Of a stretch of 64,000 nt of DNA, positions 15,311-38,742 are shown one piece after another. Both the position numbers and the translations under genes were made by a program. Below the pieces are notes generated by a model, which saw only the letters and a program-made list of their open reading frames with translations, made no database searches and was not told where the DNA came from. The stretch's first letter is position 1. Every line of letters starts with the position of its first letter. Source of the DNA: an uncultured Chloroflexia bacterium (GTDB lineage: Bacteria > Chloroflexota > Limnocylindria > Limnocylindrales > CSP1-4); NCBI GenBank assembly GCA_963734535.1, contig CAVTHS010000008.1:489155-553154 (forward strand). Direction: 5' to 3'.

Positions 15311-16981
15311 TCAGCGCTTCGATTGCCCGCCCCAGTGGGACCCGCCCGTCGTGTCGAGCCGCACGACCCACGTCGCGTTCGCGACGTCGTGGAGGAGCGG
15401 CACCAGGAGGACCGTCCCGGCCACCGAGGGGGTGTCGATCTCGTATCCGGCGAACGACGATGCCGGGAGGTCGCCGCCGCTGTGAAGGACGACCTGGCCG
15501 ACGGGGGGCCCACTCTGCCCGGGATCGAACCGCGTCGGGTCGGTCGCGACGAGCCGCGTCAGGGGCACATCGAGGTCGAGGGCGAGCCGCGCACGGATGT
15601 TGCCGGGCACCGAGAAGATGTCCGGTCGCTCGCGGTCGCCGAGCGGCGCGGTCCCCGGCCAATCGCGCGCCGAGAGGAAGCCCGCGAGCTCGTGCCGCAG
15701 CACCGGCTCCGCGATGTCCGCCGATCGGGCCAGTGCCTGGAACCGCGCGAGCGTCGCCTGGGTCGGCGCGTCGAGGGGGCCGAGCGTCGGTGACCCGATG
15801 AGGGCCGCGCCGGCACCGACCACCACCAGGGCGCACGCTGCGATGACCCGGGCCGTGAAGCCCCGGCCCGGGACGAGCGCCGCTCGGTGTGCCCGGGCGT
15901 CCGTGCGCCCCCGACGGTCCCACCATCGCCGCAGCCCAGCACCGGCGAGCGACGCGAGCGAGCCGATCCCGATGGCCGCCGCGACGAGGATGACGGCCTG
16001 GATCGGAAGGAGGTAGCGCGGATCCGCGAATCGCCCGCTCGCGGCGATGGCGATGAGGAACACCCCCATGCCCGGGCCGAGCGCGACGAGCGCGACGAGG
16101 ATCGGCCACGCCCGTCGACGGATGAGAGCGACGACGCCGACCACGGCGAGGACGGACAGGATGGGCAGCCCCAGCGGGACGCCGATCACCTGCCGCGCGG
16201 CGCTCCACGCATCCGGGAGCGCGCCGGCTCGCGCCAGCGCATCGCCATAGGCCGCCGAGACACGCGCCCAGTAGAGCGGGTCGCCGGTCAGCAGGGCGTC
16301 GTGGACGAGCATCACGGGCAGCGCGAAGAGGCCGATCCCGATCCGCCAGGATCCGGGTGGAACGGCTGCGCGCAGCCGGGCTCGACCGGCGGACCAATTC
16401 CGAGGCCAGCCCAGGCCGTCGCGGCTGGCCAGCCAGCGAACGAGGACCGCGCCCAGGGCGAGCCCGATGAGCAGCACCGTCTCGAGCCGGGCGAGGGTGG
16501 CGAGGCCGAGCAGGAGCCCGGCGAGGCCCCAGCGCGGTCGGGGTGCGAGCACCGCGAGCGCCGCCGCGAACCAGAGGCCGAGCGCCCACGGGCTCGCGAG
16601 GCCCCACGCCGTCTCGAGGAGGAGCGCGGGCGACGTGACGAGGAGGGCGCCCATGGCGGCACCACCCGCGATCCCGGCGAAGCGCGCTGCGAGCGCGGTC
16701 CCCAGCCCGACTGCGCTCGCCCAGGCGAGGATCGAGACGATGGATACCAGCAGCCACCCGCCGGCCGCGTGGGCGAGGCCGAGCGCGAGCGTCAGGAGCG
16801 GCTTCGGTGTCGTACCGAGGCCTCCCTCGAGATGGCGTCCGCTGACGAGGCGATCGAAATGGAGCACGGATGCGAACGTGTCATAGGCGAGCGGCGGCCC
16901 GAGCGTCGGCCGGATAGCGGCCAGCGCGACGACGACGGCGACGCCCGCTGCGCCGATCGCGAGCAGGTGGCTCGTCCGCAT
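15311..16981 (-). CDS. Polytopic membrane protein, possibly GT-C fold glycosyltransferase-like
   Basis: About 12 hydrophobic segments; YD, TPKPL, RLE, RYLLP motifs. Confidence 0.6.
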   Translation of the reverse strand: MRTSHLLAIGAAGVAVVVALAAIRPTLGPPLAYDTFASVLHFDRLVSGRHLEGGLGTTPKPLLTLALGLAHAAGGWLLVSIVSILAWASAVGLGTALAARFAGIAGGAAMGALLVTSPALLLETAWGLASPWALGLWFAAALAVLAPRPRWGLAGLLLGLATLARLETVLLIGLALGAVLVRWLASRDGLGWPRNWSAGRARLRAAVPPGSWRIGIGLFALPVMLVHDALLTGDPLYWARVSAAYGDALARAGALPDAWSAARQVIGVPLGLPILSVLAVVGVVALIRRRAWPILVALVALGPGMGVFLIAIAASGRFADPRYLLPIQAVILVAAAIGIGSLASLAGAGLRRWWDRRGRTDARAHRAALVPGRGFTARVIAACALVVVGAGAALIGSPTLGPLDAPTQATLARFQALARSADIAEPVLRHELAGFLSARDWPGTAPLGDRERPDIFSVPGNIRARLALDLDVPLTRLVATDPTRFDPGQSGPPVGQVVLHSGGDLPASSFAGYEIDTPSVAGTVLLVPLLHDVANATWVVRLDTTGGSHWGGQSKR

Positions 16982-17394
16982 GACGCTCGGGACGGCAATC
17001 CCGAAGCCGACGCGGAATGGGGCGAAGCGGCGCTCGAAGCTCGACAGGACGATCACCCGCGCTGAGGTTGGAGGAGGTGCAGGGGCGGACCTCGGGCCGC
17101 CAGCCGCTCTGACCGGCTCCTCCCCGCCAATCGGCCCGGCGCAGTTCCGGCGGTCCCGGCAGGCCGCGTCAAAGCCTACCGCGTGGCGACTCCGGTCGTG
17201 CGACTGGCGGTCTCACGATCGGAACCGCGTCGGCAGCTCGGCGCTGGACCGGGCAACCCGGGCCGTGCGAAGCACGGGCGTCATGGTGAAGGCGCGAGCG
17301 CTTCGCCAGGCTCAGCGCACGCCTGGAACCCCGGCCTGACAGCAATGGGGCGCGGAATGGGCCCTGCGCCGGCTGCCGCGCCCGACAGTGAGCA

Positions 17395-17814
17395 TCAGCC
17401 GGCCCGCGTCACATCCTCCTTCAGCTCCAGGACCAGCTGCATCAGTCGATCCACGGATGGGTCGAGGAGGTCGTGGAGCACGGGGTCGACGTCGCCGAGC
17501 CCCCCCAGTCGCTCGACACGGACATCGCCGAGGCCTTCCCAGGTGATGCCCAGCAGCCCGCTGATCCTTCGCGCCGCGTCCTGCTCCTCGCTCTGGAGGT
17601 GGAACGTGTCGGCCACTCGGGCGATTTCCGCCCGAATCTCGTCGATCAACGCCTCCATCCGGACCCGCTGCTCGGCAGAGAACGGCGCGCGATCGCGACG
17701 ATAGAGACGCCCGAAAGCGTCTTCATCCATCAGGCGGCGCACCGTCGCAAGGCGCTCCTCGAGCAGCCGCAACCTGATCGTTACGGCCCGCTCCTGGCCG
17801 GGGTTGAGGTTCAT
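17395..17814 (-). CDS. Helical hypothetical protein resembling the N-terminal domain of some bacterial dynamin-like proteins
   Basis: MNLNPGQER...AEQR..IDEIRAEI...ERLGGLGDV; last gene of the MutS-like operon. Confidence 0.6.
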   Translation of the reverse strand: MNLNPGQERAVTIRLRLLEERLATVRRLMDEDAFGRLYRRDRAPFSAEQRVRMEALIDEIRAEIARVADTFHLQSEEQDAARRISGLLGITWEGLGDVRVERLGGLGDVDPVLHDLLDPSVDRLMQLVLELKEDVTRAG

Positions 17815-17872
17815 GCGACGCCAATGGTCGCGGGCGCAAGGCCGTGGCCCGGGCCTGCATCTCGCAACGCGC

Positions 17873-19401
17873 TCACGCGGCCTCGCCGGAGTCGGCGCTG
17901 TCAAGTCCGTCGTGGCCGAAGACCCGGCGGTAGACGTCCCGCCCGAAGCTCGTCGGCAGCGGCGGCGCTTCGCGGAGCAGGAACGGCCGCTCGCCGTCCG
18001 TCCCTCGTTCCGCCCGGAGGAAGAGAGCGTCGGGCATCCCGAGTTGATGGAAGGTCTCGGCGAGGTCGTAGAGGTGGGTGACATAGGCGACCTTCACCCC
18101 GTGCTCGAGGAGCGCGAGCACGATTCCTCGGGCGATCTGCGAGCCTTCGCGCTCGTTTGTCGCCGAGAGCGACTCGTTGAGGAGGACGAGGCTCCGGCCG
18201 CTCACGTGATCGATGACCTCGCTCATCCGCGCGAGCTCCTCGTCGAGCTTGCCTCGCTCCAGCGTCGGGTCCTCCTCCCGCCGGAAGTGGGTCAGCACCG
18301 CGTCCCGGACATCCGCGCGATACGCGTCGGCGGCAACGAACATCCCCGCCTGCATCATGAGCTGCGCGATCCCGATGGCGCGCAGGAGCGTGGACTTTCC
18401 TCCCCCATTGGCGCCCGTGATGACCAGGAGTGCCTTGCCATCCCCAGCAACGTCGTTCCCGATCGCACGTCCGTCGATCCTGAGGCTGAGGGCCGGGTCG
18501 TAGAGCCCGCGGGCTGTGAGCGTCGCCGACCCCACGGCGGGCGGGCCAGGGAAGCACAGGGGCTCACCCTTCGCGGCGAGCACTGCGTGGAGGTTGAGAC
18601 AGCCAACGTAGAAGGCGAGCTCGGTCCGAAGCTGCTCGAAGAACCTGTGGACGTGCTCGGTCGACTCGGCGAGCGCCGCCGCTGCCGATGCGAGCCCCGC
18701 ATCGCGGATCTCGCTGAGCGTGTGCATCCCGGCGTCGTCGCGCGCGACCGACCTCGTAGGCGAAGCTGCGCCGCTCCTCGAGCCCGATCCACTCGCGCCA
18801 GGTCCGGCCGTCGCGGTGCCGCCGCCGCAGCACGAGGTCGGCCGCCCGCCCTTCCGGTCCGAGACGTGCGCTCACGAGCACCCCGCGTTCGATCGCTGAG
18901 CCGTTTCACGTGCTGCTCGACGGATCGAAGGTACGTGTCGTCAAGCTCTGCTTCGACGGTCTCGAAGAAGCGGCGGAACCCCTCCGACGAGAATCGGGCG
19001 GCATGCGCCGCGGAGATCGCGCGCAGCCGTCGAAACGACCCGAGGTAGACGACGAGGGCCGCCACGGACCGGTGGACCACGGCGTCCGGGGAGCGCAGCC
19101 CGTAGCCCCAGACCTTGCGACGCTCGCCTTCCTGCGTCTCGAGCGTGAGCTGGTAGAGCTCCCGGATGACCGCCTCCTCGGCGAGCGCGTCGCGGAGCAC
19201 GTCCTGCCGGTACGCGATCGAGGCGGGATCACCGGGCGCGGCGAGCAGGATGTCCCGCGCCACTTCCGCCAGGAGGCCGTCGCGCCCCGCCATCGCGCCG
19301 ATGACCGTCTCGAGCTCGAGGTCGGCAATGACGGATGCGAGATGGGCGGCCGGCCGCGCGAGGACGAGGTCGCCGTCGCGGGCGGTCAGGTGCGGCCTCA
19401 C
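17873..19401 (-). pseudogene. MutS-like ATPase B (domain V only), two frameshifts near 18890 and 18745
   Basis: Three consecutive frames join into one protein; Walker A GANGGGKST, THFRREED, GKLDEEL, LNESLSAT, VTHLY; start overlaps stop of gene A (GTGA). Confidence 0.8.
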
Positions 19402-20957
19402 GCGGCGACCCGCCCCTTCACGAGCTCGTACGTCAGCCCGTGCTTGCGAGCGATCGCCTCCGCATACGCAAGGCCGTCGGCGGGCCGGCGTTCGAGCTTG
19501 AACGTCCGCCGACCAGGATCGGCGGGGTCCACCGCGGCAACGAGGCTTACGGTGGTGGCCGTCAGGGACGCGAGCTCGTCGAGGAAGGTGACGACGACCG
19601 CGAGCAGGTCGAGCCGGACGGCCGCGCCGAGGATCGCCTCGTTGAGGAAGAGCGCGTCGCTCACCGTCGTCGAGCTGAAGCTCTCGTTCATCACCAGGAG
19701 GGTCCGCGGCGTTGCCGCACCGAGGATCCGGCGGATCCGCTGCAGATCATCCTCGAGCTTGCCGGCCAGGTTCCCCAGGTCTTCCGAGCGCTCGAAGTGC
19801 GTGTGGATCGCATCGACGAGGAAGACCCGTGCCTCCGTGCCGGGCACGGGGCAGCCGAGCCGGGCGAGGTGATGGAGCTGGCCGACCGCCCGCGCGAATG
19901 TCGTCTTGCCGCCCTGGTTCGGGCCGGTGACGACGACGATCCGATCTGTCCCCGCGAGATCGAGGTCGTTCGTGATGATGGCGCGGCCGGGGACCGCGAG
20001 CTTCGCGGCGAGTGCGAGGTCGAACACCTCGCGCACGCACGTCGCCTTCGAGTCGGCCGACACCTCCGGATAGCAGAACTCGAGCCCGTGGGGCCGGAGG
20101 TCGTCGATCCGCTCGCGGTACGCAAGGTAGAACTGGATCTCGCGGTCGAACCCAGCCAGGGTCGGGTCCATGAAGCCGCCGTGGTCGGCGGCGAACGCGA
20201 TCAGTGCCGCGAAGGCGTCGGGATGCATCCGGGCGACGCCCTCGAGCACGGCTGCCTCCACGTGATCGAGGGCTCCCTTCGACGGCATCGAGAACTCGGG
20301 TGGCGCCACATCGGCTGCCCGGAAGCGCGCGAACGTGGCGCGCAGCTCCACGCCGTAGTCGGGCTCGGCCTCGTAGGAGCTGACGACGACCCGGCGTCCG
20401 GAGATCCGGAGCCGAACGTCGAGCGCGTCCAGCGCGGCGAGGACACGTCGGGCATCCGAGCCGAGCGTCGCGAAGGCATCCGAACCAACGTAGCCCCGCA
20501 GATGGTCGGCGATCTGCCTGAGGCCGCGCGAGCGCGGGCCGGCCGCGTCGAGCGTGTCGGCGAGGGCGACGATCGTCGGGACGTAGACCCGCACGGCCTC
20601 CAGGAGCCAGCGCTCCCGTTCGTATCGATGGCGGCTGGCTGACGAACGCGCCATCCTGCCGCGGACGAGCCGCATCGCGTCCGCGAACGACCGGAGCGAG
20701 GCCGTCAATTCGCTGGACTCGAGGTCCCGGAAGACCTCGTGCCGAAAGGCGACCGCTTCGACATCAGGACACGGCGCGAAGAAGAACCCCCGCAGGTCGT
20801 ACTCGTCGCGCCGCCACGTGAGCCACGATGCGATCTCGTCGAGGTGGAGATCAACGACGAAGTCGCCGGACTGGGCCGCCGGCCAGCGGTCGGGAGCGCG
20901 GTCGAAGAGGACGCTCACGGCGCCCGGACCTGCCGCCGGGCGTGGATCCTCGGTCAT
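19398..20957 (-). CDS. MutS-like ATPase A (domain V only, MutS4-type pair)
   Basis: Walker A GPNQGGKTT, THFERSED, GKLEDDL, MNESFSST, VTFLDEL, ADGLAYA; no mismatch-binding domain. Confidence 0.85.
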   Translation of the reverse strand: MTEDPRPAAGPGAVSVLFDRAPDRWPAAQSGDFVVDLHLDEIASWLTWRRDEYDLRGFFFAPCPDVEAVAFRHEVFRDLESSELTASLRSFADAMRLVRGRMARSSASRHRYERERWLLEAVRVYVPTIVALADTLDAAGPRSRGLRQIADHLRGYVGSDAFATLGSDARRVLAALDALDVRLRISGRRVVVSSYEAEPDYGVELRATFARFRAADVAPPEFSMPSKGALDHVEAAVLEGVARMHPDAFAALIAFAADHGGFMDPTLAGFDREIQFYLAYRERIDDLRPHGLEFCYPEVSADSKATCVREVFDLALAAKLAVPGRAIITNDLDLAGTDRIVVVTGPNQGGKTTFARAVGQLHHLARLGCPVPGTEARVFLVDAIHTHFERSEDLGNLAGKLEDDLQRIRRILGAATPRTLLVMNESFSSTTVSDALFLNEAILGAAVRLDLLAVVVTFLDELASLTATTVSLVAAVDPADPGRRTFKLERRPADGLAYAEAIARKHGLTYELVKGRVAA

Positions 20958-21072
20958 GGCTCGTTCTCACCTGCGACCAGCCGGTCGGTCCCGCGACCGG
21001 AGGGTCAACGCTGCGCTCGACTCGGCGCGATCGGAGGTGGTGCTCCCGACCCTCTTGCTCCCGGATACACGA

Positions 21073-21102
21073 ATGGCTCCTGGAACTGGGTCCAGAAGCC
21101 AT
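21073..21102 (-). terminator. Attenuator hairpin of the leftward fluoride riboswitch
   Basis: ATGGCTTCTGGA-cccagt-TCCAGGAGCCAT 12-bp stem sequesters the 3' pseudoknot strand; weak U-tract. Confidence 0.6.
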
Positions 21103-21140
21103 CACCCGCGAACGGGATACGGCGCGAGCTTCATCGCGCG
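21091..21140 (-). ncRNA. Fluoride riboswitch (crcB motif)
   Basis: Reverse complement GCGCGA-TGAAGC-TCGCGC cgtat CCCG-TTCG-CGGG TGATGGCTTCTG: P1 stem, hairpin, GAAGC/GCTTC pseudoknot, conserved GAUG and UGAUG. Confidence 0.85.
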
Positions 21141-21155
21141 ATCGGTTGTCACCCA

Positions 21156-21184
21156 AGCATGGGCCCAAGCGTGAAGCCCGTCAA
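21156..21184 (-). promoter_or_regulatory. Sigma70-type promoter for leftward riboswitch/MutS-like operon
   Basis: TTGACG-17 nt-CATGCT on the minus strand just upstream of the aptamer. Confidence 0.65.
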
Positions 21185-21207
21185 ACAACCGTCTTGCGGG
21201 CCGCGCG

Positions 21208-21236
21208 TTGACGGTCGGGCAGGGAGGTCCTACGCT
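21208..21236 (+). promoter_or_regulatory. Sigma70-type promoter for rightward riboswitch
   Basis: TTGACG-17 nt-TACGCT, ending 7 nt before the aptamer. Confidence 0.7.
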
Positions 21237-21243
21237 CGCGCCA

Positions 21244-21308
21244 CGGCGATGGTGTCCGCCGAGACGCTGGTGCGTCTGAACCGCCCGGTATGGGCTGATG
21301 GCCCCTCG
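21244..21308 (+). ncRNA. Fluoride riboswitch (crcB motif)
   Basis: CGGCGATGGTGTCCGCCG, extra hairpin, GAACCGCCC-GGTAT-GGGCTGATGGCCCCT matches the GGCGAUGGNGUUCGCC...GCUGAUGRCNCCU consensus (one pseudoknot mismatch). Confidence 0.85.
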
Positions 21309-21338
21309 ACTGCATCGGCAGACGTGGGGCTTCTTCTT
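21301..21338 (+). terminator. Intrinsic terminator/attenuator of the rightward fluoride riboswitch
   Basis: GCCCC...CTGC-atcg-GCAG...GGGGC followed by TTCTTCTT; overlaps the aptamer 3' strand. Confidence 0.7.
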
Positions 21339-21355
21339 GCCCCGGACGGAGGCAC

Positions 21356-22735
21356 ATGACGGCCGACGCCGCGACCCTCGGGCCAGACTCGGGGCATGCT
21401 CCGGCACGGCTCCGTATCGAGGTCGTCGAGGCGCTCGGCCCGGGCCTCGAGCTCGCACACGACCAACGCACGGGTGGCCTCGTTGCTGCGCGCGCCCGGT
21501 CCGGCGGCCTGTGGCTCGGGTTCGATCGCGGGGCCCTGGTGGACTCCGACGACGGGTCCGGCCGCTCAGTGCCCGTCATCGTCGCGGTTCCCGGCTCGAC
21601 ATGGCCAGGCTGCCAGGTCGACGCGGAGATCGTGGGCGCCCTGGCGGCTGGCGGTCGGACGATCCTCGTCGCGAGGATCAGTGGAGTCCCCGAACCGCTG
21701 CCGGCGGTCGCACGCGTCGTCGCCCAGGTGCCCGAAGGGGCGTGGCTCGACGCGGCAACGGCAGCCGGGATCGCAGCCGCTGCCCGTCGCGAACACCGGC
21801 GGCGCCAGGCGATGGACCGGATCGTCGGTGGCCGGGCGTGGGAGGCGTCGGGGGCAACGCCCGAGGCCGCCCGCTTCACGACCCCGCACTCGCTCGCCGA
21901 GTACTCCCTCGGACGGCTACCGCCGCGGTTCCTCCGTGGCCTTCGGGATCTGCTCGACCCAGGCGAGCGGATCCTCTACTCGATCGAGCGCCCCGGGATC
22001 ACCGCTACGGGCTTCATCGGGCAGGTCCCACGGCAGGACCGGCGGAGCGCACTCCTGGTCCTGACCGATCGCCAGGTCGCCTGGCTCGTCGACCACGCGG
22101 ACCCTGACCGCTACCTCTCGGACTGGGGCATCGATGCCGAGACGATCCCGATCGAGCTCGTGACCGCCGCCCGCGTGGTCGAGTCGGGTCGCTGGTGTCG
22201 ACTCGTCATTGCCACCGACCGTGGCCAGACCGAGGCGCGGCTTCCGGCCGAGCTCTCATCCGAAGTGGGGGTCGCCGCCCAGCTGATCGAGCGGTTCATC
22301 CCGGCCGCGGACGTGCGCCTCCCGCGCCGGCGGTACGTCGTCGAGCGCCGCAACATCGACTGGTCTCGGCTCGATGCGTTCAGCGGGGGAACGGACGTCC
22401 GTTCGCTGACGAGGCAGCTCGATGCCGATGCGGTCGCATGGCTCCTCGGCCCAGCGCGCCAGGGCCACCCTCGCGCCGAGGCGTGCGCGCTCACCCCCGA
22501 CTCGATCGCCTTCATCTCCGGTCGCCGCCGTCACGATGTTCCGCTCGGTGCTGTCCATGCCTTCCGGATCGCCCTCTCGCCTCTCGTCGGGAGGTTCGAG
22601 GTCGTCGGGTCGCGGGTGCTGGGCGCGATGACGTTCCCGGCGCCGTTCGGCGACCTTGCGGGTACGTTCGTCCGCTCGGCGGGCCGCCTGACCGCCACCG
22701 TGCCGGGCGTGAGGCACCAGCCATCGCCGACCTGA
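21356..22735 (+). CDS. Degenerate family I inorganic pyrophosphatase-like domain fused to PH-like domains
   Basis: N-terminus is colinear with Ppa (DQRTGGL..R, FDRG, G..V.VIV, PGC, VGAL) but lacks DGDPxD; later ERILY...LLVLTDRQV...IP PH-like segments; SD GGAGG. Confidence 0.65.
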   Translation: MTADAATLGPDSGHAPARLRIEVVEALGPGLELAHDQRTGGLVAARARSGGLWLGFDRGALVDSDDGSGRSVPVIVAVPGSTWPGCQVDAEIVGALAAGGRTILVARISGVPEPLPAVARVVAQVPEGAWLDAATAAGIAAAARREHRRRQAMDRIVGGRAWEASGATPEAARFTTPHSLAEYSLGRLPPRFLRGLRDLLDPGERILYSIERPGITATGFIGQVPRQDRRSALLVLTDRQVAWLVDHADPDRYLSDWGIDAETIPIELVTAARVVESGRWCRLVIATDRGQTEARLPAELSSEVGVAAQLIERFIPAADVRLPRRRYVVERRNIDWSRLDAFSGGTDVRSLTRQLDADAVAWLLGPARQGHPRAEACALTPDSIAFISGRRRHDVPLGAVHAFRIALSPLVGRFEVVGSRVLGAMTFPAPFGDLAGTFVRSAGRLTATVPGVRHQPSPT

Positions 22736-23082
22736 GCCGATGTGCCTGGCGGCCATCGAATGCGCCGGGGTGGGCGGAGCGCGGCCGTCACGACGCTATC
22801 GGCTCTTGACGGGCGTGCGGCTGATCAACGACTGTCCGACGAGCAGCCGTGCGGACCCGAGCGCAGCGCGTATCCGGGGTCAGATGCCCGCCCCTGTCTT
22901 CCCCTCTCCCGCGCCACTCCGGGTCAGCGGCGTTTCGCCCTTGCTCTACCTCTCTCCCGCGCCACGTTTGACAGGCACCCGGCACGCTCCGACACTTCTC
23001 GGAGCGGCTGCGGCCGCCGGTGGCGGCCCCGTGGTCAGGGTCCCGGGCCCACCGTCCCGGATACGCGAAGCGAGGAAGTCCC

Positions 23083-23502
23083 ATGTCCCGTCTTACCAGC
23101 TGGCTGCGCCCGTCGACGGTCGCACACGCGCACTGCGACATCCCATGCGGCATCTACGACCCGGCCGAGGCCGTCCAGGCGGCGCGGACCGTCGCCCGGA
23201 TGGTGGAGCTGATCGGCAAGCTCCCCGAGGGCTCGACCGCCGTCGCCGATCGGAACACGTTCGTCCGCTGTGTGGCCGTCAAGGAGCAGCACGCCGAGAA
23301 GGTGAAGCACGAGGTCCAGGTCATCTGGTCCGACTACTTCAAGCCGGAGCATCTCGCGGCGTTCCCCGAGCTCCACACCAAGGTCTGGAACCTGCTCAAG
23401 CTCGCGGGCAAGAACAAGCAGGGCATCGACGCGCAGGCGGCTGCCGATCTCGAGGCGGCCACCAAGGAGTTCGCGGAGATGTTCTGGGCGACCAAGAAGT
23501 AG
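23083..23502 (+). CDS. sodN: Nickel superoxide dismutase
   Basis: Ni-hook AHCDIPCGIYDP; WSDYFKPEH; FWATK. Confidence 0.95.
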   Translation: MSRLTSWLRPSTVAHAHCDIPCGIYDPAEAVQAARTVARMVELIGKLPEGSTAVADRNTFVRCVAVKEQHAEKVKHEVQVIWSDYFKPEHLAAFPELHTKVWNLLKLAGKNKQGIDAQAAADLEAATKEFAEMFWATKK

Positions 23503-37359: not shown

Positions 37360-38742
37360 ATGAGCCTGTTCGACATCTTCGTCACCGTGGACCAGCCGGA
37401 CCTGTGGGCGGCGCGCGCCCAGATGGCCCTCTCGCTTGCCTGGCACATCGTGATCGCCTGTTTCGGCGTGGGCCTGCCCCTCCTGATCCTGGTCGTGGAG
37501 TTCCGCGGGCACCGGGGCGGCGGGCCTGTCTACGACGAGCTTGCCCACCGCTGGGCGAAGGTCCTCGGCGTGCTGTTCGCCGTCGGCGCCGTGTCGGGCA
37601 CGATCCTCTCGTTCGAGATGGGGATCCTCTGGCCGCGGCTGATCGAGACGTTCGGCTCGGTCATGGGACTGCCCTTCGCGATCGAAGGGGTTGCCTTCTT
37701 CATCGAGGCGATCTTCATCGGGATCTACCTGTACGGCTGGGACCGCCTGTCGCCGCGGGTCCACCTGCTGAGCGGCGTCCCGATCGTGATCAGCGGCGTC
37801 GCCTCCGCCTGGTTCGTCGTGACCGCGAATGCGTGGCTCAACCAGCCGGTCGGCTTCGTGCTCACCGACGGCGTGGTCACCGGCGTGGACCCGTGGGCCG
37901 CGATCTTCAACCCGGCGACCCCGATCGAGACGACGCACATGATCCTCGCCGCGCTGATGGTGACCGGCTTCGGGATCGCCGCCGGCCATGCCTGGGGCCT
38001 GCGCCGCGACCGCGGATCGCGCCTGCATCGGACGGGCTTCCTCGTGGCCTTCACGCTGGGTGCCCTCGTGACCCCGGCCCAGATCGTGGCGGGCGATGCG
38101 GCCGCCCAGTTCCTGGCCACGAACCAGCCGATCAAGCTCGCCGCCATCGAGGGCCTCTACCAGTCGGAGCGCGGGGCGCCGCTCTCGATCGGCGGCATCC
38201 CGATCGACGGCCAGATGCGCTTCGCCCTCCAGATCCCCGACGGCCTTTCCCTGCTCGCGTTCCGCGACCCGAACGCCCTCGTCCAGGGGCTCGACACCGT
38301 CCCGGCTGACCAGCAGCCGCCGGTCCTTCCCGTGCACATCGCGTTCCAGGTCATGGTGGCGATCGGGTTCGCCCTGCTCGGCCTCGGCGCCTGGCTCCTC
38401 TGGGCCTGGTGGCGCCGGCGCGGCCTGCCCGGGTCGCGCATCTTCCTGCTGGGGGCCGTCGCCGCAGGCCCGGCCGCGGCGATCGCGATGGAGGCGGGCT
38501 GGGTCGTGACCGAGCTCGGCCGCCAGCCCTGGATCGTCTACCGCATCATGCGGGTCGACGAGGCGGTTACCGCGGCGCGCGGCCTCCCGATCGGGCTCTT
38601 CACCCTGCTCGCGGTCTACGTCGTCCTGACGGTCGCCACCGTGTTCGTGGTCCGGCGGACCCTTGCGCCCGGCCCGGCCGGGCTCGACCCGCCCGGCGCG
38701 TCCGGCCCGCCCGAACCCGACCCGGCGGGGTCGCGATCGTGA
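37360..38742 (+). CDS. cydA: Cytochrome bd ubiquinol oxidase subunit I
   Basis: Motifs ARAQMA...HI, GAVSGT..SFE, EG.AFF.E, QPIKLAAIEG, GW..TELGRQPW. Confidence 0.95.
   Translation: MSLFDIFVTVDQPDLWAARAQMALSLAWHIVIACFGVGLPLLILVVEFRGHRGGGPVYDELAHRWAKVLGVLFAVGAVSGTILSFEMGILWPRLIETFGSVMGLPFAIEGVAFFIEAIFIGIYLYGWDRLSPRVHLLSGVPIVISGVASAWFVVTANAWLNQPVGFVLTDGVVTGVDPWAAIFNPATPIETTHMILAALMVTGFGIAAGHAWGLRRDRGSRLHRTGFLVAFTLGALVTPAQIVAGDAAAQFLATNQPIKLAAIEGLYQSERGAPLSIGGIPIDGQMRFALQIPDGLSLLAFRDPNALVQGLDTVPADQQPPVLPVHIAFQVMVAIGFALLGLGAWLLWAWWRRRGLPGSRIFLLGAVAAGPAAAIAMEAGWVVTELGRQPWIVYRIMRVDEAVTAARGLPIGLFTLLAVYVVLTVATVFVVRRTLAPGPAGLDPPGASGPPEPDPAGSRS

Follow-up and report, generated by a model that had tools for sequence, protein, structure and literature searches.

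The locus described here, taken as a whole, is probably the local form of a fluoride regulon module with a wide distribution, in which two divergent leaders, each bearing a switch, precede a pair of MutS-like ATPase genes and a small helical-protein gene (A-B-C) on one side and a pseudo-pyrophosphatase gene (D) on the other. It lies in a 64,000-nucleotide stretch of DNA from an uncultured Chloroflexia bacterium, which we call the window. The left switch is predicted to serve A-B-C on the minus strand and the right switch to serve D on the plus strand; the leaders are transcribed divergently. The features are as follows, with positions counted from the start of the window.

17395..17814, minus strand: gene C, a 139-aa helical protein of an unnamed family (local profile)
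17873..19401, minus strand: gene B, a paralogous MutS-like ATPase, disrupted (PF00488, MutS_V, 1.4e-18, C-terminal piece)
19398..20957, minus strand: gene A, a MutS2-core-like ABC ATPase of 519 aa (PF00488, MutS_V, 8e-15)
21072..21103, minus strand: 13-bp hairpin competing with the A-side pseudoknot strand, a candidate expression platform (folding; U-poor tail)
21092..21140, minus strand: fluoride-riboswitch-type aptamer upstream of A, with a variant linker (R1 and descriptor; below Rfam thresholds)
21243..21308, plus strand: fluoride riboswitch aptamer upstream of D, with the canonical linker (Rfam RF01734, R1 and descriptor)
21300..21339, plus strand: terminator-like hairpin with a U-rich tract, a candidate expression platform of the ON type (overlapping the 3' pseudoknot strand of the aptamer)
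21356..22735, plus strand: gene D, 459 aa, comprising an N-terminal pseudo-pyrophosphatase domain, then a long helix and a pair of PH-like beta-sandwich domains (AlphaFold, Foldseek, hhalign)

Comparisons with other genomes draw on a census of 80 loci (L001, L002 and so on), sampled from species-level genomes, where the A-B pair was found in at least 595 candidate stretches.

An earlier note, made from the sequence alone, had described two fluoride riboswitches back to back. Two divergent aptamers of this type are indeed there, and the Rfam covariance model, which that note had proposed as a check, recognises one of them. The D-side aptamer matches RF01734 at 21245-21306 (+); its 37.7 bits exceed the gathering score of 34, and no other Rfam match across the 64 kb is at gathering level. 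The A-side element fails the same model: cmscan returned no match at the gathering score, nor at E<=10 when 6.7 kb or 321 nt was searched. We also used a second model, R1, which is made from 40 canonical fluoride riboswitches from other loci and contains no rows from the window or from the loci carrying the variant, and a structural descriptor that specifies P1, P3, pseudoknot complementarity and the conserved loop and tail. The descriptor gave 83 matches in the window and the 80 loci, against none in the reversed sequences. In the window, R1 ranks the A-side aptamer first (38.5 bits, E 2.9e-10) and the D-side aptamer second (30.2 bits, E 1.1e-7), the third-ranked match scoring only 13.5 bits, and the descriptor finds both.

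The descriptor places the A-side aptamer at 21138-21095 (-), where the P1 and P3 helices, the conserved P1 loop, the 3' tail and the loop-tail pseudoknot are all present; the pseudoknot pairs at five of five positions, and two of these pairs are compensatory when compared with the consensus. Over 127 distinct R1 matches, the pseudoknot is 98.7% paired and shows compensatory changes in four of its five pairs; the pseudoknot is not part of the R1 model. The A-side linker ends in UAU, where the canonical sequence is AAC, and the same variant aptamer occurs at the same site, with the same linker ending, upstream of the A orthologues of L001, L002, L004, L005 and L007. Because the element has no Rfam match and its linker lacks AAC, we assign its ligand by orthology. 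Further linkers without AAC occur among the descriptor matches. An alignment made with MAFFT that mixed compact and insert-bearing aptamers was dropped, as it misaligned P3. The D-side aptamer itself carries an extra hairpin between P1 and the linker, and orthologous aptamers lie upstream of D in four of the six D-bearing loci (L001, L002, L004 and L005); no riboswitch was detectable within about 600 nt of D in L006 and L007. More generally, an R1 match (E<=0.01) lies on the same strand within 450 nt upstream of A in 54 of the 75 A-anchored loci that have upstream sequence, and in 10 more at 0.45-2.6 kb.

Each aptamer is followed by a stable hairpin. The one on the D side (-28.5 kcal/mol, z -3.58) was equalled in stability by none of 200 shuffled sequences, and it is absent from the output of a simple terminator scan. 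The A-side hairpin (-29.2 kcal/mol, z -2.60) is likewise not a canonical terminator by simple scan; its arms, with differing loops, fold in the same way in L001, L002 and L004, while L007 retains the arm sequences but pairs them otherwise in its minimum-energy fold. Neither the intergenic region nor the sequence after C yielded a promoter or canonical terminator in simple scans, and the fold downstream of C is no better than that of shuffled sequences. The 3' pseudoknot strand of each aptamer can alternatively be taken up by the downstream hairpin. We suggest that fluoride binding would lock the pseudoknot, block the competing hairpin and allow transcription or translation to proceed, as in an ON switch.

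The first two genes behind the A-side leader are translationally coupled, the GTG start of B overlapping the TGA stop of A in the motif GTGA. The model of A (pLDDT 84, pTM 0.82) has a clamp reduced to a beta-hairpin and a low-confidence loop. In Foldseek it matches MutS, MutSbeta and the MutS2 core (E 4e-18), aligns to the MutS fold of lever, clamp and ATPase over more than 530 columns, and reaches its best target-normalised TM score, 0.64, with the Thermus MutS2 core (7vuf_D). The pair has the architecture of a lever, a small clamp and an ABC ATPase, and consists of MutS2-core-like paralogues. In its fold, the pair is as close to MutS proteins that bind DNA or ribosomes as to any remodeller. 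In A (519 aa) and B (531 aa), Pfam finds only MutS_V and no mismatch-binding, connector, nuclease, Smr or KOW domain. Both proteins score 59.7-63.5 bits with the NCBIfam MutS1 models, below the cutoffs of 480-642, and 49.4 (A) and 73.9 bits (B) with mutS2, whose cutoff is 400; the latter is the best match of B. Walker A and the catalytic Glu are conserved, and the Walker B motif of A reads Asn-Glu. Counted from alignment columns, the position of E. coli MutS D693 in Walker B is Asn in all 72 B sequences and in all but two of the 73 A sequences, and that of H728 in the H-loop is Phe in 71 of 73 A but His in all 72 B. A and B are predicted, almost certainly, to form an asymmetric heterodimer.

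The identities given to the genes in the earlier note hold, but it had missed that B in this assembly runs through three reading frames. Relative to the intact 531-aa B of L001, it carries two uncompensated 1-nt insertions, near 18892 and 18750, neither in an obvious homopolymer run, and a GC3 frame plot confirms that the coding signal switches frame twice. This may mean that the operon does not work here, or that the sequence has errors. If the left operon were a decaying remnant and B a true pseudogene, no A-B heterodimer would be made here and the locus would say little about function; we take this to be a serious possibility, though on balance a doubtful one, as the two leaders and the other three genes (A, C and D) are intact, and comparison of A and D with L001 reveals no indel that breaks the frame. 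GC3 is high in all three segments of B, so any inactivation would be recent, or else the indels are assembly errors. Decay might instead have touched the A-side RNA, which would then be constitutive, inactive or tuned to another ligand, leaving only D under fluoride control in this genome. Such a history would fit the lack of an Rfam match at E<=10, the replacement of AAC by UAU in all six variant loci and the absence of a U tract from the downstream hairpin. However, this element has the highest R1 score in the window and a perfect pseudoknot with two compensatory pairs against the consensus, and it is kept together with its competing hairpin although identity among the A proteins of the loci sharing them is only about 51%. 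In other phyla, canonical fluoride riboswitches are found at this site upstream of A, other linker variants exist among the matches, and a preprint reports divergent members of the class, beneath the RF01734 gathering score, beside crcB (bioRxiv 10.64898/2026.10.21.760802). Decay or retuning of the A-side element is therefore improbable.

The census showed that the conserved unit is the A-B pair. B directly follows A in all 80 loci, from more than 10 phyla, and was recovered as a single ORF in 72 of them, so that A and B are a universal and obligate pair of paralogues. The earlier note had proposed a single system of four proteins, but this is no fixed four-gene system, the D family occurring in six of the 80 loci and the C family in 12. 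Since C is missing from 68 and D from 74 of the A-B loci, A-B does not need either of them; both are accessories of particular lineages and not obligate partners. The layout of the window is repeated only in L001, whereas in L002, L004, L005, L006 and L007 D is convergent and lies downstream of B. All four protein families are also found under fluoride riboswitches in other genomes. Behind 151 R1 matches in the 80 loci, the first gene is A in 55 cases, D or a D-like gene in five and a C-family gene in four, two of the last being fused to dynamin GTPases; enolase, pyrophosphatase, phosphatases, antiporters, NuoH-like proteins and dynamin-like GTPases also directly follow these matches. Two loci combine several of these genes on one strand: L067 has a riboswitch, C, enolase, pyrophosphatase, a PH-PH protein, His_Phos_1, A and B, and L068 has a riboswitch, a D-like gene, A, B and crcB.

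C has no Pfam or NCBIfam match, and the ESM Atlas gives only unnamed clusters for it. The family numbers 414 clusters, all labelled 'hypothetical'. A tblastn search found the family in L001 only, and a local profile found it in the 12 loci given above, in seven of which it adjoins enolase on the same strand.

D has no Pfam match at E<=0.1 and so does not reach the gathering score of PF00719. In its AlphaFold model (pLDDT 79.3), however, residues ~18-150 have family I pyrophosphatases (PPases) as their top Foldseek matches (E 4.9e-8, probability 1.0, TMt ~0.55). In hhalign, D matched a six-sequence PPase alignment over 135 columns (probability 50%, E 1.6e-4) but E. coli PPase alone with a probability of only 0.23%, and its profile found nothing meaningful among PDB sequences (best E 0.22). 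With single positions uncertain because the alignments are at 15-20% identity, D lacks D67, D70, D97, D102, K104, K29, Y51 and Y55 (E. coli PPase numbering) and agrees with the catalytic set only at R43, and at D65 in one alignment. Among 30 more distant homologues of D, 20 reach the PF00719 gathering score, and none of 20 aligned fusion homologues keeps all six of D65, D67, D70, D97, D102 and K104. These alignments and the model suggest that the N-domain has the fold of a family I pyrophosphatase but is catalytically dead. The remainder of the model contains two strand-rich domains, each closed by a helix; the ESM Atlas lead from D to bPH_3 scores 0.82, all leads for D being below 0.9, and Pfam finds bPH_3 in three relatives at E 0.0045-0.0058, below the cutoff, and not in D. 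Elsewhere, this putative PH-PH module adjoins a pyrophosphatase or is fused to one. D is a decayed pyrophosphatase domain fused with a PH-like pair that other genomes encode as a gene of its own next to a real pyrophosphatase.

As the earlier note had stated, the window contains no Fluc/CrcB or CLC-F exporter: there is no CRCB or CLC Pfam match among the 45 ORFs scanned, and local crcB and CLC profiles, which found 18 crcB and seven CLC ORFs in the 80 loci, matched no six-frame ORF of at least 60 aa. To call the system non-export, however, was too strong. A gene of the CrcB or CLC family lies within 10 kb in 20 of the 80 loci (crcB in 14, a CLC-family gene in six), including four of the six D-bearing loci, and L068 carries crcB on the A-B strand. 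This suggests that the module accompanies export and does not replace it.

What A-B does under fluoride can only be proposed. A-B could be an ATP-driven clamp or remodeller that sustains machinery dependent on Mg and phosphate during fluoride poisoning, in which C would link A-B to enolase and the PH/pseudo-PPase protein would link it to pyrophosphatase; we offer this tentatively, as a reading that may well prove wrong. For an ATPase with adaptors acting on fluoride-trapped enzymes, as the earlier note had imagined, the linkage of the C gene with enolase and of the PH gene with pyrophosphatase is circumstantial evidence. In a stricter form, A-B would be a fluoride-proofed reactivase, an asymmetric MutS-type ATPase that spends ATP on freeing the classical targets of fluoride from dead-end Mg-fluoride-phosphate complexes; the Walker B Asn would weaken Mg coordination and thereby allow escape from trapping by ADP-Mg-fluoride, C would be the adaptor for enolase and PH-PH that for pyrophosphatase, and the dead subunit of D could co-assemble with the real enzyme. 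This version seems to us very unlikely. In the original reading of 2010, A-B would act on DNA, as a mismatch-independent MutS-type clamp in repair or in the control of recombination, and its induction would answer the DNA damage caused by fluoride or acid stress. The gene list of that study places 'mutS' (DNA repair) among the genes of the crcB motif and a DNA-damaging stress was suggested (Weinberg et al. 2010, PMC2864571), and the presence of PF00488 in both proteins and a fold that matches the core, clamp and ATPase of MutS and MutSbeta over its full length agree with it. However, domains I and II and the nuclease are absent, MutS_V being all that was found in 519 and 531 aa, the clamp has shrunk to a beta-hairpin and a low-confidence loop, and none of the 151 riboswitch matches has a DNA-repair gene as its first gene downstream, so that a role on DNA is unlikely. 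A role on the ribosome, where A-B would resemble MutS2 in sensing or splitting complexes stalled by fluoride-poisoned translational GTPases, draws on the MutS2 core as the closest architecture (7vuf_D, TMt 0.64), on a match to the Bacillus MutS2-collided-disome complex (7qv3, E 1.1e-16) and on mutS2 as the top NCBIfam match of B (73.9 bits). Yet that score is far under the 400-bit cutoff, Smr and KOW domains were not detected, and genes for ribosome rescue did not appear among the neighbours driven by riboswitches; we consider this role quite unlikely.

The A-B pair behind fluoride riboswitches is the 'mutS' association that was noted in the 2010 gene list (PMC2864571). Our literature search found no explanation for this link, and the word MutS is absent from the available text of a 2024 review of fluoride resistance, where the regulon is said to include pyrophosphatase, enolase, Na+/H+ antiporters and formate hydrogen lyase (PMC11139923). 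A loose association in print since 2010 has now become a set of defined, testable objects, namely the A/B pair, a family-wide Asp-to-Asn change in Walker B with one degenerate ATP site, and two accessory families, both unnamed, with gene neighbourhoods that point to enolase and pyrophosphatase. These two enzymes are textbook targets of fluoride. In addition, because the Rfam model misses a conserved variant of the fluoride riboswitch, regulon surveys based on RF01734 undercount.

Compared with the RF01734 class, both elements share P1, P3, the pseudoknot, the conserved loop and tail, the position in the 5' leader, a hairpin overlapping the 3' tail and downstream genes from the known set of this class. 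They differ in that the A-side linker departs from the canonical one and the element falls below every Rfam threshold, the D-side aptamer has an extra hairpin, and the window lacks an exporter gene. A parallel to the A-side element may be cluster #418,142, which the accessible description gives as 307 members, none over the RF01734 gathering score (maximum 28.9 bits) and recognised by context and core motifs (bioRxiv 10.64898/2026.10.21.760802). Both are fluoride-riboswitch-like RNAs below the gathering score, but, compared by that description, the RNAs of the cluster adjoin crcB and the variant here precedes a MutS-like pair. The N-domain of D resembles family I pyrophosphatase (PF00719) in its predicted fold and in a profile-profile match over 135 columns, whereas its catalytic residues appear to be lost and it is fused to two PH-like domains. 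A-B shares the fold, Walker A and the catalytic Glu with MutS and the MutS2 core. Unlike these proteins, it is an obligate pair of paralogues and not a homodimer, both members have Asn in place of the Mg-coordinating Asp of Walker B, and A has Phe at the site of the H-loop His. KamC, the lysine 5,6-aminomutase reactivase (NCBIfam NF052383), is also an ATPase with MutS domain V, and is named as an enzyme reactivase; A and B score 41.8 and 70.1 bits with its profile, far below the cutoff of 300. KamC is of use here only as a precedent for MutS-type ATPases that can serve proteins and not DNA.

Two fluoride riboswitches had been proposed to lie back to back between genes A and D, and a cmscan search of both strands with the Rfam fluoride riboswitch (crcB motif) model, RF01734, bore out one of them. 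The plus-strand, D-side element was matched at 21245-21306 with 37.7 bits against a gathering score of 34, 50 nt upstream of gene D (21356-22735, a 459-aa ORF), and this was the sole gathering-level Rfam match in the 64 kb, the G+C content of which is about 72%. The minus-strand motif upstream of gene A (the A-side motif), searched on 6.7 kb and again on 321 nt, was not matched by cmscan at E ≤ 10 and so fails the check named in the earlier note. According to a recent preprint, all members of another fluoride-riboswitch cluster fall below the RF01734 cutoff (bioRxiv 10.64898/2026.10.21.760802); on that account, divergent members are known to escape the Rfam model.

We also used a structural descriptor, which demanded a P1 of 4 bp, a loop pattern of 8 nt, a P3 no shorter than 3 bp, the conserved tail and four or more of the five loop-tail pseudoknot pairs. 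This descriptor gave 83 matches in the window and 80 related genome loci anchored on A homologues (L001-L080), and none in the same sequences reversed; the A-side motif (21138-21095, minus strand) was among the matches, with all five pseudoknot pairs. An independent covariance model, R1, was built from 40 compact canonical descriptor matches, leaving out the window and six variant-carrying loci. Its two best matches in the window were as follows.

Leading R1 matches in the window
21092-21140, minus strand: A-side motif, 38.5 bits, E 2.9e-10
D-side element, plus strand: 30.2 bits, E 1.1e-7

The third-ranked match (38356-38401, plus strand; 13.5 bits, E 0.015) lies inside a cytochrome bd subunit I gene, is without the conserved tail and is most likely due to chance. 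R1 does not model the pseudoknot, the covariation of which was measured on 127 distinct R1 matches. The pseudoknot was 98.7% paired in these, with compensatory changes in four of the five pairs, and none of its covariation measures was reached by any of 500 shuffles. At two of the pairs with compensatory changes, the window's A-side motif has the A-U and C-G alternatives. Its one real departure is the P1-P3 linker, which ends in UAU as opposed to AAC in the canonical matches, and the same variant is found upstream of A in L001 (the closest relative of the window locus), L002, L004, L005 and L007, where the A proteins are 83% to about 51% identical to that of the window. As far as the literature searched goes, this conserved sub-threshold aptamer variant upstream of A is new. 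In the D-side riboswitches of the window, L001, L002, L004 and L005 alike, P1 and the linker are separated by an additional hairpin (21262-21278 in the window). It varies in sequence and length from locus to locus and resembles an optional stem that has been conserved.

Folding of both leaders showed that the pseudoknot-forming 3' tail is able to pair instead with the sequence immediately downstream.

Competing hairpins in the two leaders
21072-21103, minus strand: A-side competing hairpin, 13 bp, z -2.6
21300-21331, plus strand: D-side hairpin with a U-rich tract after it, z -3.6, its stability reached by none of 200 shuffles

In L001, L002 and L004 the A-side hairpin is found again, folded from the same arms around differing loops; the arm sequences are present in L007 as well, where the minimum-energy fold pairs them otherwise. 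Simple scans of the leaders found no promoter or canonical terminator. The competing hairpins would represent the usual ON-switch logic, and both leaders may thus be switched ON by fluoride.

Next, we considered how widely A and B, the paralogous MutS-like ATPase genes, are linked to such riboswitches. A profile search of a species-level genome collection found A relatives in at least 595 of 603 candidate stretches, and the best 80 of these at least 595 loci, whose record titles name more than 10 phyla and one archaeal MAG, made up the locus set. Among the carriers, as possible culturable sources of the intact proteins, are Streptomyces sp. NPDC059398 (L078), Alicyclobacillus shizuokensis NBRC 103103 (L049) and Acidobacteriaceae bacterium TAA 166 (L053). 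A B-type match directly follows A in all 80. At E ≤ 0.01, R1 gave 151 matches in 71 of the 80 loci; in 75 loci the sequence extends upstream of A, and of these, 54 have a same-strand match within 450 nt of A, ten more have one at 0.45-2.6 kb, and 11 have none. This linkage is evidently the 'mutS' association of the crcB motif already noted in 2010 (PMC2864571). In the literature searched, no paper was found that explains a connection of the fluoride riboswitch with MutS or mismatch repair, or of the crcB motif with mutS. Two A-type genes occur in one locus in L025, where a riboswitch precedes both copies, and in L062, where it precedes the second.

First genes downstream of the 151 R1 matches in the 80 A-anchored loci (the remainder belong to other families)
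A family: 55 of 151
NuoH-like (NADHdh): 12 of 151
Dynamin-family GTPase: 11 of 151
Na+/H+ exchanger: 5 of 151
MFS transporter: 5 of 151
D or D-like: 5 of 151
Metallophosphoesterase: 4 of 151
Enolase: 3 of 151
His_Phos_1: 3 of 151
Pyrophosphatase: 3 of 151
crcB: 2 of 151

The NuoH/HyfC-like membrane subunits (Pfam NADHdh; L015, L020, L026, L033, L049, L051, L052, L054, L055, L061, L071 and L078), often divergent from A, probably correspond to the association that the literature gives as 'formate hydrogen lyase'. Dynamin-family GTPases occur in L015, L018, L020, L034, L037, L042, L060, L061 (4932-6755, plus strand), L069, L073 and L080. Riboswitch-driven DUF6062 proteins also recur (L027 2544-3305; L042 2854-3621, minus strand; L067 14222-14941, minus strand; L063 8456-9562), as do DUF211, DUF190, HEAT_2, His_Phos_1 and metallophosphoesterase proteins.

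MutS domain V is present in A (19398-20957, minus strand) and in the C-terminal part of B, whose GTG start overlaps the A stop codon. NCBIfam scores for both fall far under every equivalog cutoff. In a structure search, the AlphaFold model of A (pLDDT 84, pTM 0.82) was aligned over more than 530 columns with MutS, MutSbeta and MutS2 (E 4e-18), an engineered D693N MutS (3k0s) being among the matches; the best target-normalised TM score was 0.64, to the Thermus MutS2 core. These matches indicate that A consists of a lever, a small clamp and an ATPase. An alignment of E. coli MutS with 73 A and 72 B sequences then gave the motif columns below.

ATPase motif columns, numbered as in E. coli MutS
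K620 (Walker A Lys): Lys in 71 of 73 A, Lys in 72 of 72 B
D693 (Walker B Asp): Asn in 71 of 73 A, Asn in 72 of 72 B
E694 (catalytic Glu): Glu in 71 of 73 A, Glu in 71 of 72 B
H728 (H-loop His): Phe in 71 of 73 A, His in 72 of 72 B

Engineered D693N MutS reportedly shows altered Mg binding. As judged from these alignments, the pattern fits a heterodimer that is obligate, has one degenerate site and coordinates Mg in an unusual way, and A and B probably heterodimerise. The window's own B is not intact: its GC3 signal crosses three frames, and comparison with the intact 531-aa B of L001 places two single-base insertions near 18892 and 18750, while in A and D no difference from L001 breaks the frame. 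The breaks are either assembly errors or the mark of a recent pseudogene, and similar breaks in other long-contig MAGs hint at assembly indels (in L010 16974-18751, C and enolase are split over several frames; in L012 4022-5203, the first third of A is missing).

D had been called a dead pyrophosphatase-PH fusion, and the first part of this description was confirmed. Its model (pLDDT 79) falls into three parts, namely a beta domain at the N-terminus, a long helix and a pair of strand-rich domains, both of them helix-capped. Foldseek matched the N-terminal domain to family I pyrophosphatases (E 4.9e-8, TMt about 0.55), and profile-profile comparison with six real pyrophosphatases gave a probability of 50% and E 1.6e-4 over 135 columns. 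D has only 216 relatives at E ≤ 1e-3 among 1.84 billion representatives; because 20 of 30 more distant relatives scanned reach the Pfam pyrophosphatase gathering score, the family can be tied to pyrophosphatase by homology. The full set of D65, D67, D70, D97, D102 and K104 is kept by none of 20 aligned fusion homologues, nor by the window's clade. A set of polar residues, D57, D65, R48 and R70 among them, is invariant and proper to the D family, and D66 and R58 of D are conserved as well, so 'dead' here means without pyrophosphatase chemistry, not without ligand. The label 'PH-like' is a tentative one, reflecting a secondary-structure pattern in the model and sub-threshold bPH_3 matches. The PH-PH part is a separate gene in L014, L027 and L067, in the last directly after a real pyrophosphatase gene, and in L068 it lies within a 481-aa D-like gene.

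The remaining gene of the locus is as follows.

17395-17814, minus strand: gene C, 139 aa, helical protein

C had no match in Pfam or NCBIfam, and its profile search returned 414 clusters, every one unnamed. The family occurs in 12 of the 80 loci, following B as in the window only in L001. In seven of the 12 (L010, L020, L027, L045, L060, L061 and L067) it is directly beside a same-strand enolase gene, and in L056 beside an enolase fragment. The C family also supplies the N-terminal domain of riboswitch-driven dynamin-family GTPases in L018 (7444-9507, minus strand) and L020 (17018-19105, minus strand), the latter fusion having enolase on one side and crcB on the other. The window's module is flanked immediately on the left by the gene for a 581-aa membrane protein without Pfam match (15311-17056, minus strand), with no terminator detected in the stretch that separates it from C; on the right is a nickel superoxide dismutase gene (23020-23499, plus strand).

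The earlier note joined the four proteins into one, non-export system; comparison among loci did not bear out a single four-gene system, and showed 'non-export' to be too strong a word. D is present in only six of the 80, every one a Chloroflexia or Limnocylindrales record. L001 alone has D divergent from A, as in the window; in the remaining five, D lies downstream of B and converges with it. A riboswitch belonging to D itself is seen in the window and in four of these six loci, none being found for D of L006 or L007. Between window 17915-22739 and L001 8217-13041, nucleotide similarity is 83.6% and covers D, the intergenic region, A and B only, the flanks giving no blastn match, which suggests that the module is mobile or maintained as one unit. 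The four families do come together in larger fluoride operons. L067 (5896-13053, plus strand) has, on one strand, a riboswitch, a C-like gene, enolase, pyrophosphatase, PH-PH, His_Phos_1, A and B, an operon-like run whose riboswitch has a classical terminator; L068 has a riboswitch, a D-like gene, A, B and crcB, also on one strand. As had been stated, no exporter is found among the window ORFs. Within 10 kb, crcB occurs in 14 of the 80 loci and a CLC-family gene, of the fluoride type or other, in six; one or the other accompanies four of the six D-bearing loci (L002, L004, L005 and L007). The module thus goes along with export, and an exporter is probably encoded elsewhere in the genome from which the window comes.

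The architecture of the aptamers, the competing hairpins, the gene families and their riboswitch linkage, and the motif pattern of A and B are observed directly; fluoride-dependent ON switching, pairing of A with B, and any biochemical role of A and B, with or without C and D, are things we infer. The reading that we favour, while holding it more likely wrong than right, is that A-B would draw on ATP, as a clamp or a remodeller, to sustain Mg/phosphate-dependent machinery under fluoride; C and the PH/pseudo-pyrophosphatase protein would then connect A-B to enolase and pyrophosphatase. A role directed at DNA and one directed at the ribosome are both live alternatives to the remodeller.

The fluoride riboswitch class and its 'mutS' link are already known. 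As far as the literature searched goes, the pseudo-pyrophosphatase-PH-PH family and the enolase-linked C family are new, as is the anatomy of A and B, with Asn at Walker B in both and one degenerate site. A and B share with MutS2 and MutS the core of lever, clamp and ATPase, but differ from them in having no mismatch-binding, connector or nuclease domain, as seen for A in the model-based match to the MutS family.
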